Part shown: positions 4,859 to 43,115 of the stretch, piece after piece
Layout: each line of letters opens with the position of its first letter
Numbering within the stretch: the stretch's first letter is position 1
Assembly (NCBI GenBank): GCA_024276825.1
Contig: JAJRWI010000069.1
Coordinates: 53,459-117,458, forward strand
DNA from: an archaeon
GTDB taxonomy: Archaea > Asgardarchaeota > Thorarchaeia > Thorarchaeales > Thorarchaeaceae
Direction: 5' to 3'
Length of the DNA: 64,000 nucleotides
The notes under the pieces: generated by a model
The model's database searches: none
The model's input: the letters and a program-made list of their open reading frames with translations, nothing else
What the model was told of the DNA's origin: nothing
Translations under genes and position numbers: made by a program

Positions 4859-5476
4859 TCAGGCTCCCCCCATTCTAATGCATGACTCGGTACGATGCAC
4901 TCTGAAACGTATTGAAAAATAGGAATATAGGAGATTATAGAACTTCATTAATAATGTTGGTGAGTCATAGAATCGCTCTTTTCGAGCCATCCTCTCAACT
5001 ATTCTCTTGCTAAATCCGTTCTTCTTTGCAGTTTCCCAGAAGTAGACCTCTATATCCTTCATTGTTGACAGATGATGGACGATTGTCTTCACTAGGAGAT
5101 TAGTCAATAGTTCAATGGCCTTTCTTGCATTATGCGGTAAATTAGATGCTCTTATGCTCATGGGCAAATAGACTGGTACACCATCAAGACTATCGTAATA
5201 AATCTCCCGTGGCACACCCTTGCTGCTTCGTAAGGTTTCCAGCAGTGAGAGTATTCTTGGAAGTTGGGGCAAGATTGGTTTTGATATGTCACGATCGCGC
5301 CACTCAATCTTCGTCAAGACGTGCAGCTCTGGGTCAGGCTCTTGTTCAGCATCAATTGCAAGTACAGTTATTCTATGATTAGTGTCTCTCAATTGAAGGT
5401 TAATCAGATTCAGAATTGAGATCCATGAGTGTGAAGTATCTCTTACAAATGCATCATGTTTCACCGCAACACTCAA
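4859..5476 (-). CDS. Hypothetical protein (205 aa)
   Basis: TTG start overlapping the upstream stop (TTGA); operon position. Confidence 0.7.
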   Translation of the reverse strand: MSVAVKHDAFVRDTSHSWISILNLINLQLRDTNHRITVLAIDAEQEPDPELHVLTKIEWRDRDISKPILPQLPRILSLLETLRSSKGVPREIYYDSLDGVPVYLPMSIRASNLPHNARKAIELLTNLLVKTIVHHLSTMKDIEVYFWETAKKNGFSKRIVERMARKERFYDSPTLLMKFYNLLYSYFSIRFRVHRTESCIRMGGA

Positions 5477-15548: not shown

Positions 15549-16985
15549 TTATGCTGAAATAGAGAGAGAGGTTATCTGCTCGTTATCTCTTTGAACAGGC
15601 AAGCCTAGGCCCTTCTTTAGTTGCATCACGCCAACTGCAGCAATAGCACTCACCATTAGTAGTGTCAGCGGGAATCCAAGGGCCGGTAATGCCCAGCCAA
15701 AGAATGCAATCTGGGGCAATGCTAGAATTGTACCGATTGTTGGAGTCAGACTGTACATTGAATTTCTGATCTTATTGGGAATGGCATCCAGAAGTATCCG
15801 CTGAGTGAGAATCTCTGCAAATCCCCCAAAGAAGCTGGTTGATGAGAAGACTATGGTCATAAGAATGACTGGAATTACAGACTCGTCAGGAATCGACATT
15901 ATCACAAAATCGGTTCCAGGAAATATCAAGTGAACCATATTGTCAACATTGGATGGTGGAGGAAATAGGAACATGATCATCGCGATTGCCAGGAAGAAGA
16001 GAACTCCACCCAGCTGAAGGGCTCTGAATCGGGGAATCCAAGTCCTTGGGTCAAAGCGTTTTGACCAAATTCCCGAGCGTTCCTGGGCCACCACTCCTGG
16101 AATGAACAGGATTGTTCGATAGCTTGAAACAGCAATATCGGTGACTAAATAGCTGAAGTACATTGGGAAGAGTATCAAGTTTCCCCAGACAGTAATAGTG
16201 CTCATGATAAAACAGCTACCAAGAACAATATGAAAGACATACTTATCGTTATAGAGAAACGACAGCCCACCCACAAGGATGTTCTTGTATTCGCTCATTG
16301 ATGGGCGTTCTGGTCTTTCATCTTCCACCTCTTTGAAGTCCCTAATGAAGAACAAGGCACTTATTGCTATAATTAGGCATAGCACGGCTTGCAATTGAAA
16401 CACGAAGGGTCGCCCCATAATTGTCGCGATCACTGCTCCGGGAACAATTGTCAGGGTTGCAACAATTTGAAAGAGCATTCCTATCCGTCCCCAAAACATT
16501 CCATACTGCTTTCTATCATGATCCTCCTCGCCTATTGCCACACGAAAGTTGTTATCAAACCAGGCCTGAAAGCTTCCAGACATCTGTGAAGAGCCAAGTC
16601 CGATTAAGACATAAATTAGGACTAATAGAAGGAAATGAGTGCTTGTGGTGACTAGAGAAAGTAAGAGGAATGCTATACCAAACGACAGGAAGGCACAGCA
16701 TATGATATATCTCTGTCCAATCCAATCACCAATGGCACCAGTAGGATAATCAAGTGCGATTTGTACTGTCATCTGCACAACTAGGAGAATGCCTACTAGG
16801 CTCATTCCGCTAATGAAGTCCCCAGCACCTAATGCTTCTGCAACAAATATCACTGTAAATGTCGAGGAGAGTGTAATAGCCACAGATACTACTGGAAGAA
16901 ATATTGACAAGGTCCTAGCAAGTCGCATTATTCTTCTATTATTCTCATCGAGTCCAAATAGGGTTGATGTCTTACTCAAGATCAT
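15549..16985 (-). CDS. MFS transporter
   Basis: About 12 hydrophobic helices; DYPTGAIGDWIGQR (motif A); SGSFQAW; GGAGG RBS before ATG 16985. Confidence 0.9.
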   Translation of the reverse strand: MILSKTSTLFGLDENNRRIMRLARTLSIFLPVVSVAITLSSTFTVIFVAEALGAGDFISGMSLVGILLVVQMTVQIALDYPTGAIGDWIGQRYIICCAFLSFGIAFLLLSLVTTSTHFLLLVLIYVLIGLGSSQMSGSFQAWFDNNFRVAIGEEDHDRKQYGMFWGRIGMLFQIVATLTIVPGAVIATIMGRPFVFQLQAVLCLIIAISALFFIRDFKEVEDERPERPSMSEYKNILVGGLSFLYNDKYVFHIVLGSCFIMSTITVWGNLILFPMYFSYLVTDIAVSSYRTILFIPGVVAQERSGIWSKRFDPRTWIPRFRALQLGGVLFFLAIAMIMFLFPPPSNVDNMVHLIFPGTDFVIMSIPDESVIPVILMTIVFSSTSFFGGFAEILTQRILLDAIPNKIRNSMYSLTPTIGTILALPQIAFFGWALPALGFPLTLLMVSAIAAVGVMQLKKGLGLPVQRDNEQITSLSISA

Positions 16986-17074
16986 TTCCTCCAATTATTG
17001 ATTGACTGATTACTCCTCTTTCCCATAGTGGGATAAAGTGGCCAATCTACTGGACACTCGATGACCAGTAGACT

Positions 17075-17110
17075 AAACAAAAAAGAGGGGTGCCGCAAGG
17101 CACTCACCTC
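17075..17110 (-). terminator. Terminator-like hairpin plus U-tract in the leader of the MFS gene
   Basis: Minus strand GAGGTGAGTGCC-TTGC-GGCACCCCTC-TTTTTTGTTT; the 5' arm contains the stop codon of a small upstream ORF. Confidence 0.65.
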
Positions 17111-17208
17111 GTAAAGACCGCTCGGTGAACATAGTTCAATTGAGCGATCATTGTTTCAGATATCACACGATTGTTCCTTCTCTTTCGACGATTTCTTATC
17201 CAACTCAT
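17104..17208 (-). CDS. Putative 34-aa Arg-rich leader peptide or small protein, MSWIRNRRKRRNNRVISETMIAQLNYVHRAVFTR
   Basis: ATG at 17208, 33 nt downstream of TTATATA (17241-17247); TGA at 17104-17106 inside the terminator stem; below the ORF-track size cutoff. Confidence 0.5.
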   Translation of the reverse strand: MSWIRNRRKRRNNRVISETMIAQLNYVHRAVFTR

Positions 17209-17400
17209 GGTAATTCACGAGAAATAGGACGAAGAGTTAGTATATAATGCAAAGCCACAATTTAGAGTCACAGAGAGAAGATACAACAAGGAGTCACAAT
17301 TTGTTACTAGTGAAGACATCAACAGTCATGACAGTCAAACATATTACTGCCCGAAAGTGTTCTAAAATTGCATTTCACACAGTATTGTGAGGCGATATTG

Positions 17401-40223: not shown

Positions 40224-43115
40224 ATGTCACTATCACTACTAAACAAAACACGATTAGCGGCCCTTCTGATAATGGGGCTTCTTATTGCTCCGAACCCTAT
40301 ATTACTCACAAGTGCTAGGAGTTCGTCAGCCCAAATAGCCCGGGTTTTCATTGATCCAAAGATTGAGGATTTTGTGACAGACAACCCTGACGGAAAGATT
40401 CCGATAATTATGAAGTTTCAGGATGGGATGAAATTTAATGACATCTCCAAGATAATAGAGGGAATGGATATTCCGGGTATAGAAGTGCGGCATGTTTTCC
40501 ATCTGATACCAATGGTTTCAGCATATGTGCCCAGAAATGTCCTTGGTCAGCTGGAAAGTGTTACATCGTTGGTTGGAATCGCTCTGGATGACAAGAAGAC
40601 TATTCTACCACTGACAGAACACAACGATTGGATCATATCTACACCAGAGGGATACATTCACTCAGATGAGTTGCTCGGGGCCACTGATCTATGGGATCAA
40701 GGATACAATGGGAGTGATGTAACAATTGCAATTATTGACACAGGTGCTATGGGAGATCATCCAGACCTCCAAAATAGAATAATAGGATTCAAGGATTTCA
40801 TAAATAATTTAGATGATCTAGACCCATCAGATGGGATTGATGCATATGATGATAATGGTCATGGAACAGCTTGTGCATGGCTTGCCGCAGGGACTGGAAA
40901 AAACACAGGTTTCAACCACTCAGGAATGGCTCCTGGAGCAGACCTGTTGATAATTAAGGCGCTAGATGCAGAAGGGTCAGCTGACAACAGTATTTTATCT
41001 CAGGCCATCGAGTATGCTGCAGACTATGGTGTGGATGTAATTAGTATTAGTGTTGGGGGAGACTGGACCGATGGTCTTCTTTCACTTGATTCCACCATAT
41101 TATCAGTGAAGAGCGCGATTGAATTAGGCGTCACTGTTGTTATTGCTGCTGGAAATAGCGGCCCTGCCACAAACACAATAAACTCCCCAGGCCTTGTTGA
41201 GGAGGCAATCACAGTTGGGGCATCCGTTGCAGATCAAGGTGTGGTGGACTTCAGCAGCAGGGGACCTGTTGAGTTCGTTTCTGAGCAACCCAAGGGAGTA
41301 TTTGCAAAGCCAGATATTGTAGCACCGGGCTATCAAGTTCTCTCTGGACGCTGGTATTCGTCAGATCCTTTTGAGTACCCACCAGATGATGACTTTGGAC
41401 CATATTACACCCTGTTTTCGGGCACATCAGCCTCTGCACCACAAGTAGCAGGTCTGGTCGCTCTACTGAAGGACAAATACAGTACTCTAACGCCGTTGCA
41501 GGCAAAGCTAGCCTTGATGAAAGGTGCTACTGATCTCAATGAAGACCCAATGGCCCAAGGTTGGGGTCTTGCAAATGTGTCAAGGGCAGCAGAATTGCTT
41601 GAGCTTGATCCCATTACAATCATGAGCCCAAGGCGATTTCCAGTGTTGCCTGATGGAACTAATGTCTTTGTCTATGGTGAAACACGCAAGCCGCAAAATG
41701 TGACTGTCATTTCTCAGATTGACAGAGGGCAACTGACAATCACGACTTCAGGCAATGCGAGTGCGTTCATTGAAGTTGATGATGAAGTGGGTGTTTCCAA
41801 AGGATATTCATACTTTAGCATTGGTCTAGCAATCCCAGAAGACCTCCCACTCAGTGCAATTGGAAATTATTTCGGAGTTCTTGAATTAAAGGAAGACTCA
41901 GCAGTAATTGCATCCATGGACTTGAAACTGAGAGTCACCACCTATGGTGGATCGCTCCTGGTTGATAGTTCTCACCATTCAAGCCTAGATCCAGACAGCC
42001 CCGATTCATATAGATACTTTGGTGAATATTTGAGAGAACAGGGAATAGTAATGGAAGAGCTGGGCAGTGTTGAGGCCCCTGCCACCATCACACTTGAAAC
42101 TCTTCTGAAGCATGAAGCATTCATGATCATGGACACAGAGCTTACATATTCGGAAGAGGAGATTGAAGCTATTCATAGTTTCGTCAAGCAGGGAGGAACA
42201 TTATTGATTCTTTCAGAGTTTTACAACTCGACAACTCAAGTTGCAAGCTTTGCCATTGACTCGTATAATCAGATTCTAGAGCCCTTTGGAATTCAGTGTG
42301 AGAGATATGAGATAGGCGTCGGTTCATCAGCATATGTTGGACGAGTGTATGGAGCGAACCACGGAGGAGCTGTGGAAAACCATTCTCTTACTGAGGGGGT
42401 CGAGGACCTTTACATTCTTTATGGCAGCACATTAAGTGTTGATCCTTCAGTGGCCGGTGCTCAAGGACTCTTATGGACTGATAGCGCTCGAACACATGCA
42501 TTAATCGCCTATGCAGAATTTGGAGAGGGCAAAGTAATTGCCATTTCAGATGGGTCAACGCTATATGACACTACAATCTACGACGCTATCAAAGCAGGTG
42601 CTGACAATCTAAGACTCCTGGAAAATGTCGCCAATGAGATGACTACAAAAGCACCAAGAGTCTTGAATGTCATTGTAAATATCAACCGTAGTGATAATAG
42701 AGGGAATGTGACCGCTTACATCTTTGATGAGGACTTGGTTGATGTCAGTATTACGCTGCAATTGCCAAATGGCACTAAGATTGTGGGACCAGTCGATGAA
42801 TCACTAGGATACAAATTCGCCATGAGTTTTGATATACCCAGTGCAGGGTTCTACATGTTGAATATCACATCTATTGACTCTGCAGGGCACACAAAGCAGG
42901 TTATAGAGAAATTTCTGATTCCAGTAAGACCCGTAGAGGACACTGTTTTAATGACTGTGCTCTTGGGACTTCTAGGTGTTATTGGAATAAGTCTTGGATA
43001 TGTAGGACTCAAGAGGTTCATTGGGGGTAAGAAGAAGCATCGCGAATGGGAGCCCCAATGGATAGATGATGGTAGGGGACCACCACCATCTTCTAGTCCT
43101 CCAGAGATCGTATAG
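40224..43115 (+). CDS. Membrane-anchored S8 protease with Site-1-protease (MBTPS1/SKI-1)-like domain architecture
   Basis: Triad IIDTG / HGTACA / GTSASAP; AAGNSG; post-catalytic Ig-like and alpha/beta domains; C-terminal TM and Pro-rich cytoplasmic tail. Confidence 0.9.
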   Translation: MSLSLLNKTRLAALLIMGLLIAPNPILLTSARSSSAQIARVFIDPKIEDFVTDNPDGKIPIIMKFQDGMKFNDISKIIEGMDIPGIEVRHVFHLIPMVSAYVPRNVLGQLESVTSLVGIALDDKKTILPLTEHNDWIISTPEGYIHSDELLGATDLWDQGYNGSDVTIAIIDTGAMGDHPDLQNRIIGFKDFINNLDDLDPSDGIDAYDDNGHGTACAWLAAGTGKNTGFNHSGMAPGADLLIIKALDAEGSADNSILSQAIEYAADYGVDVISISVGGDWTDGLLSLDSTILSVKSAIELGVTVVIAAGNSGPATNTINSPGLVEEAITVGASVADQGVVDFSSRGPVEFVSEQPKGVFAKPDIVAPGYQVLSGRWYSSDPFEYPPDDDFGPYYTLFSGTSASAPQVAGLVALLKDKYSTLTPLQAKLALMKGATDLNEDPMAQGWGLANVSRAAELLELDPITIMSPRRFPVLPDGTNVFVYGETRKPQNVTVISQIDRGQLTITTSGNASAFIEVDDEVGVSKGYSYFSIGLAIPEDLPLSAIGNYFGVLELKEDSAVIASMDLKLRVTTYGGSLLVDSSHHSSLDPDSPDSYRYFGEYLREQGIVMEELGSVEAPATITLETLLKHEAFMIMDTELTYSEEEIEAIHSFVKQGGTLLILSEFYNSTTQVASFAIDSYNQILEPFGIQCERYEIGVGSSAYVGRVYGANHGGAVENHSLTEGVEDLYILYGSTLSVDPSVAGAQGLLWTDSARTHALIAYAEFGEGKVIAISDGSTLYDTTIYDAIKAGADNLRLLENVANEMTTKAPRVLNVIVNINRSDNRGNVTAYIFDEDLVDVSITLQLPNGTKIVGPVDESLGYKFAMSFDIPSAGFYMLNITSIDSAGHTKQVIEKFLIPVRPVEDTVLMTVLLGLLGVIGISLGYVGLKRFIGGKKKHREWEPQWIDDGRGPPPSSSPPEIV

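Follow-up and report, generated by a model that had tools for sequence, protein, structure and literature searches.

What is a short open reading frame (ORF) doing when it lies between a promoter and a transporter gene and ends inside a hairpin followed by a run of uridines? The question is raised by the minus strand of a 64,000-nucleotide stretch of a Thorarchaeaceae genome (assembly GCA_024276825.1, contig JAJRWI010000069.1, positions 53,459 to 117,458), here called the window, where such an ORF (ORF1) precedes a gene for a transporter of the major facilitator superfamily (MFS). A preliminary description had likened this leader to bacterial attenuators in which a ribosome stalling on the leader peptide, in response to arginine supply or a ligand, controls the gene downstream, and had named an independent small gene with its own terminator as the alternative. 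To our knowledge, translation-coupled transcription attenuation is poorly documented in archaea. Comparison with related genomes points to a reading to which we would give a probability of about 0.4: the MFS leader would be built from a degenerate copy of a small-ORF cassette, with a premature terminator and coupled read-through. Translation-coupled read-through is possible, and attenuation by arginine sensing is not supported. Coordinates below are positions of the window, G000 denotes the window genome, and L-numbers denote promoter or MFS loci of its relatives.

The part of the leader that is shared with other genomes is its promoter. A DNA search of 41 related genomes gave matches confined to positions 17316 to 17205, mostly 17274 to 17206, that is, the promoter up to the start codon of ORF1. 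Such matches occurred in 17 of the 24 other genomes of the same family, with up to six copies per genome, and in 0 of 16 genomes of other families; similarity of the window DNA to its relatives ends at the ORF1 ATG. The family in question is a single archaeal family of Candidatus Thorarchaeota, represented by the window genome and 85 others (86 in all), which, being related, are not independent. The shared motif, called P1 here, reads GTGAC-N8-GTGGC-N6-WTATATAC with an upstream GTCACAAATTGTGAC palindrome, and usually occurs several times per genome. Allowing at most one mismatch, the pattern was found in 82 of the 86 family genomes, at 0 to 7 sites each, while the reversed pattern used as a control gave two hits. 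Exact matches were present in 78 of the 85 other genomes of the family and in none of 314 genomes from other families in the phylum, with no control hits. Lineage labels agree with this picture, in that only three of 80 labelled hits bear labels other than Candidatus Thorarchaeota, Promethearchaeota or "uncultured archaeon". A metagenome-assembled genome (MAG) labelled Hermodarchaeota (L083) does carry a complete A-B-C cassette of the kind described below; the hits in Methanoregulaceae (L066) and Secundilactobacillus (L125), both lacking a cassette, look like chance hits. The P1 cassette thus appears to be a multi-copy element found only in this Thorarchaeota family.

The consensus of 128 loci begins abruptly at the palindrome tAGTcACAa..TGTGAC and continues through ctGTGACCCT, GTGGCT.CGC, TATATAC, TTGTGAA and ATGGC. 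We infer from it an archaeal promoter combined with an operator of TGTGAC-type repeats about 12 bp apart; here, as elsewhere in this work, the assignment of promoters, operators and start sites is derived from sequence. In the window the P1 core is made of TGTGAC/TGTGGC direct repeats, likewise about 12 bp apart and abutting the TATA box, and the palindrome lies about 13 nt farther from the core than in the consensus. This is the only full copy of P1 in the window genome, where relatives have up to seven. No recurrent transcription factor was found among the clustered upstream neighbours of P1 loci that would make a candidate regulator.

Copies of P1 often lie less than about 200 nt from contig ends (G002:C341:4-35, G046:C40:154-185, G051:C42:22-53 and G063:C51:41-72 are examples), which suggests that near-identical cassettes break assemblies, so that copy numbers taken from MAGs are lower bounds. 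A shortened variant of P1, with a GTAACAATTTGTGAC palindrome, is also present in the window genome before a bactofilin-like gene (contig C73, 45004-46314, plus strand; PF04519, E 2.3e-12). This gene lies directly under the promoter, 47 nt past the TATA box and without small ORFs, and genes for bactofilin-domain proteins (about 411-440 aa) are likewise placed directly under P1, with no small ORFs, at L052, L061, L062, L102, L118, L121 and L130. The arrangement suggests one regulon that spans cytoskeletal, exporter and small-ORF genes.

What P1 usually precedes in the relatives are tandem ORFs of 26-40 codons (types A, B and C), often upstream of MFS exporters. An ORF starts 25-40 nt, typically 32 nt, after the TATATAC in 115 of 137 non-identical P1 loci, so that the layout reported for the window, a small ORF at this distance from its promoter, proves to be a family trait, and the TATA box belongs to a conserved promoter. 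The ORF classes were defined by regular expressions. Type A comprises 101 distinct peptides of 33-38 aa with the pattern MALATNxRxxSVxKNK..STxALxYAYxTVVR, type B 49 peptides of 26-32 aa with MALAK...ISTxAIxxAYFRR, type C 25 peptides of 33-40 aa that are variable up to a terminal LSxxEVLALEAT, and type D 12 peptides of 41-43 aa. Successive ORFs are tightly packed, with gaps of 4-9 nt from A to B (25 of 26), 3-7 nt from B to C (14 of 14) and 4-8 nt from A to D (8 of 8), and the last codons of one ORF form the ribosome-binding site (AGGTGA or AGGAGA) of the next.

The first three classes are under coding-type selection and type D is not. Entropies at codon positions 1, 2 and 3 are 0.97, 1.03 and 1.40 for type A, 1.00, 0.85 and 1.53 for type B, and 1.31, 1.15 and 1.51 for type C; for type D they are 0.58, 0.63 and 0.68, with no excess at the third position. 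In types A and B the conserved residues adjoin the stop codon. The peptides are hydrophilic and basic, have neither cysteine nor a signal sequence, and in type B the basic residues are a mixture of lysine and arginine without conserved arginine codons. No A, B, C or D peptide matched Pfam, the ESM Atlas gave no usable match for the small peptides, and a search of four canonical loci against Rfam returned nothing relevant. In an exact look-up, seven of ten peptides were absent from the protein collection, and the other three were named only "hypothetical protein". A type A profile run against 1.84 billion proteins gave 41 hits at E ≤0.001, of which 39 were short (32-103 aa), with no fused forms; the two long hits, with 11 and 14 matched stretches, look like low complexity.

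Type D may be a DNA element that happens to be read. About 70 nt long, TGGTCAC..GTGGTCACAGAACTGGTCAGTTAGTCTCAGAAACAGCATATCnTGTGACCAACCTATAG, it is nearly invariant across genera and is read in two frames at different loci, one giving ..WSPGGHRTGQLVSETAYHVTNL and the other (D') ..WSQNWSVSLxNSISCDQ (L016, L029, L063, L065, L080, L094, L109, L123, L127 and others). The operator half-site TGTGAC(C) is repeated in it three to four times at a spacing of about 11-12 bp, and for this reason the element is probably bound, as DNA, by the factor of the P1 operator. A structured RNA was considered for the D element and rejected: its inverted ends, TGGTCACA and TGTGACCA, are invariant and so show no covariation, and RNAalifold found no consensus in a first alignment, which included five false rows. 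When a profile of 27 elements was searched with nhmmer against the 2.9-Mb window genome, the stretch between the hairpin and the MFS gene was the second-best hit (11.5 bits, genome-wide E 0.49), which suggests a D-element relic at the expected place. The best sub-threshold hits of the D-element profile and of the end-hairpin profile described next lie together on contig C16 of the same genome (21646-21683, E 0.27, and 40350-40382, E 0.29), and this pair, sharing one contig, may be another decayed cassette.

How do cassettes end? Among the first runs of at least five T residues within about 520 nt of P1, 26 of 35 are preceded, at a distance of at most 8 nt, by a hairpin of -9 kcal/mol or better, with a median of -16.8 kcal/mol. 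Among 273 control 42-mers, whose median is -5.9 kcal/mol, 19% reach -9 and 1% reach -15. Of 24 cassettes that end with type C, 16 have a T5+ run no more than 100 nt past the stop codon. The conserved "EVLALEAT-stop" end of ORF C is itself encoded by a 12-bp hairpin, GUGCUCGCGUUG-GAAG-CAACGUGAGCAC, in which 91.3% of alignment cells are paired and five of the 12 pairs show compensatory changes (14 cells); none of 500 shuffles scored as high, and slid controls reached 17-49%. Sought at the nucleotide level independently of ORFs, this hairpin was found at 33 distinct loci. The stop codon occupies a fixed place in its 3' arm at all 33, and the frame upstream is open for at least 20 codons in all 33, whereas this is so in 24 of 66 control frames; at 25 of the 33 the hairpin holds the end of an ORF that starts with ATG and has at least 28 codons, and a T5+ run follows within 40 nt at 21. 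Because canonical cassettes end in a covarying hairpin that holds the stop codon, a stop-codon-holding terminator is a family trait. In short, the normal end of a cassette is a structured terminator, and an ORF of variable sequence is kept open across it. Simpler units of a solo ORF, a hairpin and a T6 run are found at L009 and L014.

The hairpin after ORF1 in the window fits this pattern in kind, though not in detail. Its stop codon lies in the 5' arm rather than the 3' arm of the canonical cassettes, and it is best regarded as analogous to the canonical end hairpin, not sequence-homologous. With its T-run it looks like the cassette's own stop signal rather than a conserved amino-acid-sensing switch. 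A consensus scan also flagged positions 17103-17090 with the T-run as terminator-like. Hairpins followed by T-runs are in slight excess in this genome as a general habit (20 against 13.9 ± 3.6 expected in 20 kb, and 6 against 4.4 ± 2.4 in 6 kb). The MFS gene itself is closed by a signal of the same type as the one after ORF1, a 9-bp hairpin, GCCTCTGGAG..CTCCAGAGGC, followed by TTCCTTTTTT (15546-15525, minus strand).

ORF1 sits at the canonical cassette position, its ATG 31 nt past the TATA box (+32), and is canonical also in length and basic charge. The peptide itself is an orphan. It has no relative in the 85 other family genomes (best E 0.19), its scores with the A and B profiles are 4.6 and 3.0 bits (E far above 1, not significant), and neither it nor ORF2, the frame that follows, matches any of the A, B, C or D profiles. 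The best pairwise match of ORF1 is a B peptide of a genome of the same genus; its score of 39 compares with a shuffle maximum of 31.8 ± 3.8 and is equalled by 6% of shuffles. The A and B families have conserved peptide residues near the stop, a trait of ribosome-arrest leaders of the ErmCL, TnaC or AAP type, and ORF1 does not. By position and composition only, ORF1 looks like a type B ORF.

The link between P1 and the transporter is likewise recurrent. Three kinds of cargo gene follow the small ORFs: MFS type 1, which is the window kind, MFS type 2 and a GNAT acetyltransferase. Type 2 matches MFS_3 and TIGR00900 and partially EntS and Mef, and resembles exporters of the DHA3 (drug:H+ antiporter), EntS and Mef types. 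Thirty loci that hold the MFS gene of the window or a relative of it were examined, and in 11 of them P1 lies 90-830 nt upstream. These 11 all belong to the 14 loci with at least 51% identity (orthologues, 51-59%), and none of the 16 loci below 51% has P1. A divergent 3-hydroxyacyl-CoA dehydrogenase gene is the upstream neighbour in 17 loci, as it is in the window, and on this ground the MFS loci are taken as positional orthologues. At the syntenic orthologues L024, L027, L031, L032 and L033, the MFS gene has no conserved promoter other than P1 ahead of it, and small ORFs also lie upstream of orthologous MFS genes in other genera. Within the same genus, orthologues have a second conserved type of promoter (P2; AAACCTTTATAT with GTTTG..CAAAC) ahead of the MFS gene, along with a longer ORF, both of which the window lacks; no second promoter of the P2 kind was recognised in the window leader.

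The P2 type, AAACCTTTATAT flanked by GTTTGG..CAAAC inverted repeats, precedes further small ORFs at L022, L023, L025, L113 and L116, and is found in the window genome outside the window (contig C10, about 5119-5420, plus strand). There it is followed by MKRKIRLVRSWPRNPRADVFQTHAMAVGFIQAYRR, by a peptide clearly of type B (B profile, E 3.5e-5) and then by a GCCGGCCAT..ATGGCCGGC hairpin.

The leaders of the orthologues were compared with that of the window. Six other non-redundant syntenic leaders hold small ORFs that vary in number and sequence, with a D-like element and no T5+ run. In all, a T5+ run lies between promoter and MFS gene in 3 of 28 MFS-linked loci, the window included; the small ORFs and the MFS gene are therefore likely to be co-transcribed at the 25 loci without one. 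Of 28 distinct MFS type 1 starts, 14 have a frame of at least 30 open codons ending at them, where about five would be expected from a stop frequency of about 0.056, a count that is indicative only, the loci being related. The window shares this feature, the frame upstream of the ORF2 stop being open for 57 codons. Conservation of the small ORF and its stems in orthologous MFS leaders, on which the attenuator proposal depended, was thus not found: the ORF1 peptide is without a relative, DNA similarity stops at its ATG, and the T-run is found in 3 of 28 leaders and in none of the six syntenic ones.

The physical layout of the leader is as it had been described. The TATA box, the 34-codon Arg/Lys-rich ORF, the hairpin inside it (SL1), the terminator-like hairpin with its U-run, two further hairpins (SL3 and SL4) and the GGAGG were all found again at the same places (Table 1).

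Table 1. Features of the MFS leader and the start of the transporter gene, with positions in the window
Feature	Position	Strand	Remarks
Putative operator palindrome GTAACAAATTGTGAC	17307-17293	minus	family consensus tAGTcACAa..TGTGAC; one mismatch
P1 core GTGAC-N8-GTGGC-N6-TTATATAC	17271-17240	minus	exact pattern match
TATA box TTATATA(C)	17247-17240	minus	assigned from sequence
ORF1	17208-17104 (ATG 17208, TGA 17106-17104)	minus	34 codons, MSWIRNRRKRRNNRVISETMIAQLNYVHRAVFTR, contains RNRRKRRNNR
SL1, hairpin inside ORF1	17149-17116	minus	-14.5 kcal/mol; not alignable to any relative
Terminator-like hairpin GAGG..GUGCC/GGCAC..CCUC	17110-17085	minus	-15.0 kcal/mol; ORF1 UGA in 5' arm
ORF2	17107-16982	minus	41 codons; GTG overlaps ORF1 stop (GTGA); TGA 16984-16982
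U-run U6GU3 (UUUUUUGUUU)	17084-17075	minus	directly after the terminator-like hairpin
SL3	17075-17043	minus	-15.9 kcal/mol
Possible D-element relic, TGGTCA/GGTCAC half-site array	17070-17026	minus	overlaps SL3
SL4, UCCCA/UGGGA	17033-17021	minus	-5.5 kcal/mol; holds in-frame ORF2 ATG (17026)
GGAGG, Shine-Dalgarno sequence of the MFS gene	16992-16988	minus	read as W-R within ORF2
MFS transporter type 1, probable TTG start	16979-15549	minus	Pfam MFS_1, E 4.2e-16

The leader of 276 nt is folded more stably than chance would have it, with a minimum free energy of -82.2 kcal/mol against a shuffle mean of -65.5 (sd 5.1; z -3.24), and none of 200 shuffles was as stable. SL1 pairs GAUCGCUC with GAGCGGUC (17149-17142 with 17123-17116) and has an inner UGAAC/GUUCA stem. 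Searched against Rfam, the region gave sub-threshold matches only (AniS at 17.3 bits, where the gathering score is 50, and a CRISPR repeat at 15 bits). ORF2 spans the terminator, SL3 and SL4, stops 2 nt before the MFS TTG, and is the positional counterpart of the D-type ORFs. The start of the MFS gene is most likely the TTG, which lies 8 nt after the GGAGG; an ATG at 16985 comes just 2 nt after it. Translated from the TTG, the N-terminus is MSKTSTLFGLDE (MSKTSTLFGL), which aligns with MSRTATFYGL in an orthologue and fits MSRxxxFxGL, and several MFS orthologues likewise start with TTG or GTG. The TGGAGG context of the Shine-Dalgarno sequence recurs at L027, L033 and L086. Genes for TopoVI-B, CofE (F420 ligase), the divergent 3-hydroxyacyl-CoA dehydrogenase and alpha/beta hydrolases are neighbours in the window.

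Taken together, these features suggest how the leader might work. P1 would be the promoter of both ORF1 and the MFS gene, with the main on/off control exerted by a DNA-binding regulator on the TGTGAC/GTCACA repeats. The hairpin and U-run would stop most transcripts early, acting as a premature terminator, that is, an attenuator in the broad sense, and the transcripts that read through would carry ORF2 and the MFS gene and provide MFS expression. On such RNA, ribosomes would pass from ORF1 to ORF2 by way of the GTGA overlap and finish 2 nt before the MFS start; their passage would melt SL3 and SL4 and bring ribosomes to the MFS ribosome-binding site. The ORF1 peptide would sense no specific amino acid or ligand.

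Several observations weigh against this proposal. Termination in archaea is reported to depend mainly on oligo-T tracts and not on hairpins, in which case effects of ribosomes on the hairpin may not matter. As an orphan, the ORF1 peptide may no longer be under selection, and a frame of 34 or 41 codons has, by an estimate from base composition, a chance of roughly 10-15% of staying open by drift. The window terminator hairpin showed no homology to the canonical end hairpin in nhmmer searches at E ≤10, and among the genomes compared the terminator before the MFS gene is unique to the window genome. A weak TATA-like sequence, TTTATC (17037-17032), could provide the MFS gene with a start site of its own. 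Nor can recent conservation be judged, because no relative closer than 59% identity was found; of the 15 loci that a scan of metagenomes for the MFS protein recovered, the best also has 59%.

The most serious competitor is a possibility that had been named from the outset, in which a unit of about 135 nt, complete in itself, is made up of P1, ORF1 and the terminator, a weak promoter between 17075 and 16995 serves the MFS gene separately, and ORF2 goes untranslated. Such a unit fits the pattern of the family at least as well, stand-alone cassettes commonly ending in a hairpin with a nearby T-run (the 16 of 24 type C endings above) and the solo units at L009 and L014 looking much like it; a T6 run, moreover, is a plausible efficient archaeal terminator, and a possible start near 17010 would have TTTATC about 27 nt ahead of it. 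The difficulty is the promoter. TTTATC makes a poor TATA box, the interval from the terminator to the MFS gene holds no recognisable P1 or P2, the five syntenic orthologues listed above have no conserved promoter other than P1 ahead of the gene, and the chain from ORF1 through ORF2 to the MFS gene is unbroken. Should one instead regard the leader as a decaying relic, in a lineage that has mostly lost its cassettes, with ORF1, ORF2 and the hairpins drifting and only P1 and the Shine-Dalgarno sequence mattering? The solitary P1 copy, the failure of both ORFs to fit any profile, the fragmentary D element and the displaced operator would all follow. Yet drift would not give three hairpins as strong as -14.5 to -15.9 kcal/mol in a span of 110 nt, with the leader at z -3.24, and the ATG has been kept at exactly +32 along with the overlapping stop/start junctions, so that we consider simple decay unlikely.

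Two further explanations give the peptides a more specific role, and both seem to us improbable. The small ORFs could encode exported or modified peptides of a bacteriocin-like or RiPP-like kind, with the MFS protein as exporter or immunity pump, an idea in keeping with the third-position entropies of types A and B (1.40 and 1.53, against 0.85-1.03 at positions 1 and 2), with a cargo of two MFS families and an acetyltransferase, and with the resemblance of MFS type 2 to known exporters. Against it, no maturation enzyme lies beside the window copy, the peptides are hydrophilic and basic without cysteine or signal sequence, and P1 also directly precedes the bactofilin-like gene. Classical ribosome-mediated attenuation, with arginine or a ligand sensed through the RNRRKRRNNR peptide, draws its case from a simulation of ribosome footprints. 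Ribosomes with P-site codons 4-15 leave SL1 and the terminator intact, those at codons 17-20 free 17120-17128 to pair with the 5' arm of the terminator, and those at codons 29-35 cover the terminator, so translation could influence that hairpin. The antiterminator previously proposed, pairing of UUCACC with the terminator 5' arm, appears in the simulation only at codons 17-20; it consists of 6 bp and competes with SL1 at -14.5 kcal/mol. As to what might be sensed, neither the peptide nor its arginine codons nor the stems are conserved, four different arginine codons are in use, and type B peptides interchange lysine and arginine freely; since the mixture in type B comes without conserved arginine codons, arginine sensing has no comparative support. 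We hold the proposal that stalling on this peptide reports arginine or a ligand to be the least probable of the readings considered.

A bolder view concerns the whole family. The P1 cassettes could be true ribosome-coupled attenuators in which ORF C, translated through its covarying terminator and fed by coupled arrest or sensor peptides A and B, controls read-through into exporters, acetyltransferases and other genes, the window being a one-ORF version placed before an MFS gene. We regard this as doubtful. A close parallel is offered by bacterial transcription attenuators with leader peptides, above all those of the pyrBI type, whose leader ORF extends across the terminator. The P1 cassettes share with these a short ORF right after the promoter with a structural gene downstream, a hairpin and U-run that enclose the ORF stop, so that a ribosome must melt or cover the hairpin, and, in the canonical cassettes, a covarying hairpin through which the ORF is kept open (33 of 33). 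They differ in their archaeal host and in having no conserved run of regulatory codons; moreover, the window terminator is not kept in orthologous leaders (3 of 28), and the strong operator of P1 suggests control by a transcription factor. The window alone makes a weak case, being a singleton without conservation.

Other known systems offer partial likenesses. Conserved-peptide upstream ORFs of eukaryotes, including the arginine attenuator peptide, resemble types A and B in that the peptide sequence is conserved, not just the ORF, and in that termination takes place beside the next start codon. The cassettes differ in being polycistronic with coupling of the Shine-Dalgarno type, and the window peptide is not conserved. 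The leader peptides found ahead of inducible genes for efflux and resistance (mef(E)/mel, ermCL), to go by the portions of the papers available (PMC4335068, PMC5499644), have in common with the cassettes small ORFs upstream of MFS exporters (MFS type 2 has the partial Mef and EntS matches) and, in types A and B, conserved residues next to the stop; the cassettes, however, have two or three tandem coupled ORFs where these leaders have one, occur also without an exporter, and show no sign of drug or ligand sensing. Small-protein operons detected by ribosome profiling (Ribo-seq) in archaea, for example in Methanosarcina mazei, are similar, as far as the available part of that paper describes them (PMC11456600), in consisting of unannotated ORFs of fewer than 50 codons with signs of purifying selection, whereas the cassettes are multi-copy, have an invariant promoter and operator and occur in one Asgard family only. 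A full-text literature search, in its listings and the opening lines of abstracts, returned no paper on cassettes of small ORFs in Thorarchaeota or on attenuation by leader peptides in archaea.

The surroundings of cassettes elsewhere in the family also have some recurring features. Sequences typical of tRNA genes (..GGTGCCGAGGATGGGATTCGAACCC..) lie on the opposite strand just downstream of cassettes at L088 and L128 (about 90 nt past the T-run) and at L007, L008, L011, L019 and L124. Genes on the same strand follow stand-alone A-B-C cassettes at 100-1100 nt (L085, at +500; L017, at +1384; L013, L071, L015, L093, L120, L008, L011 and L087), and their translations, judged by eye, resemble a YbaK-like deacylase, flavodoxin, RimJ/RimL-like GNATs and alpha/beta hydrolases.

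The window thus leads to a family-wide cassette system that, as far as we could find, has been neither annotated nor described. Its features are a multi-copy promoter and operator, micro-ORFs under coding-type selection, a covarying hairpin that encloses the stop codon, and a 70-nt DNA element read in two frames; the genes to which it is repeatedly linked are those of two families of MFS exporters, a GNAT acetyltransferase gene and a bactofilin-like gene. If the cassettes did prove to be coupled to the ribosome, they would constitute the first leader-peptide attenuation system described in Archaea, and in an Asgard lineage. The cassettes offer testable templates for termination and read-through by archaeal RNA polymerase, for the regulator of a Thorarchaeota regulon, and for dozens of missed small genes of Asgard archaea.

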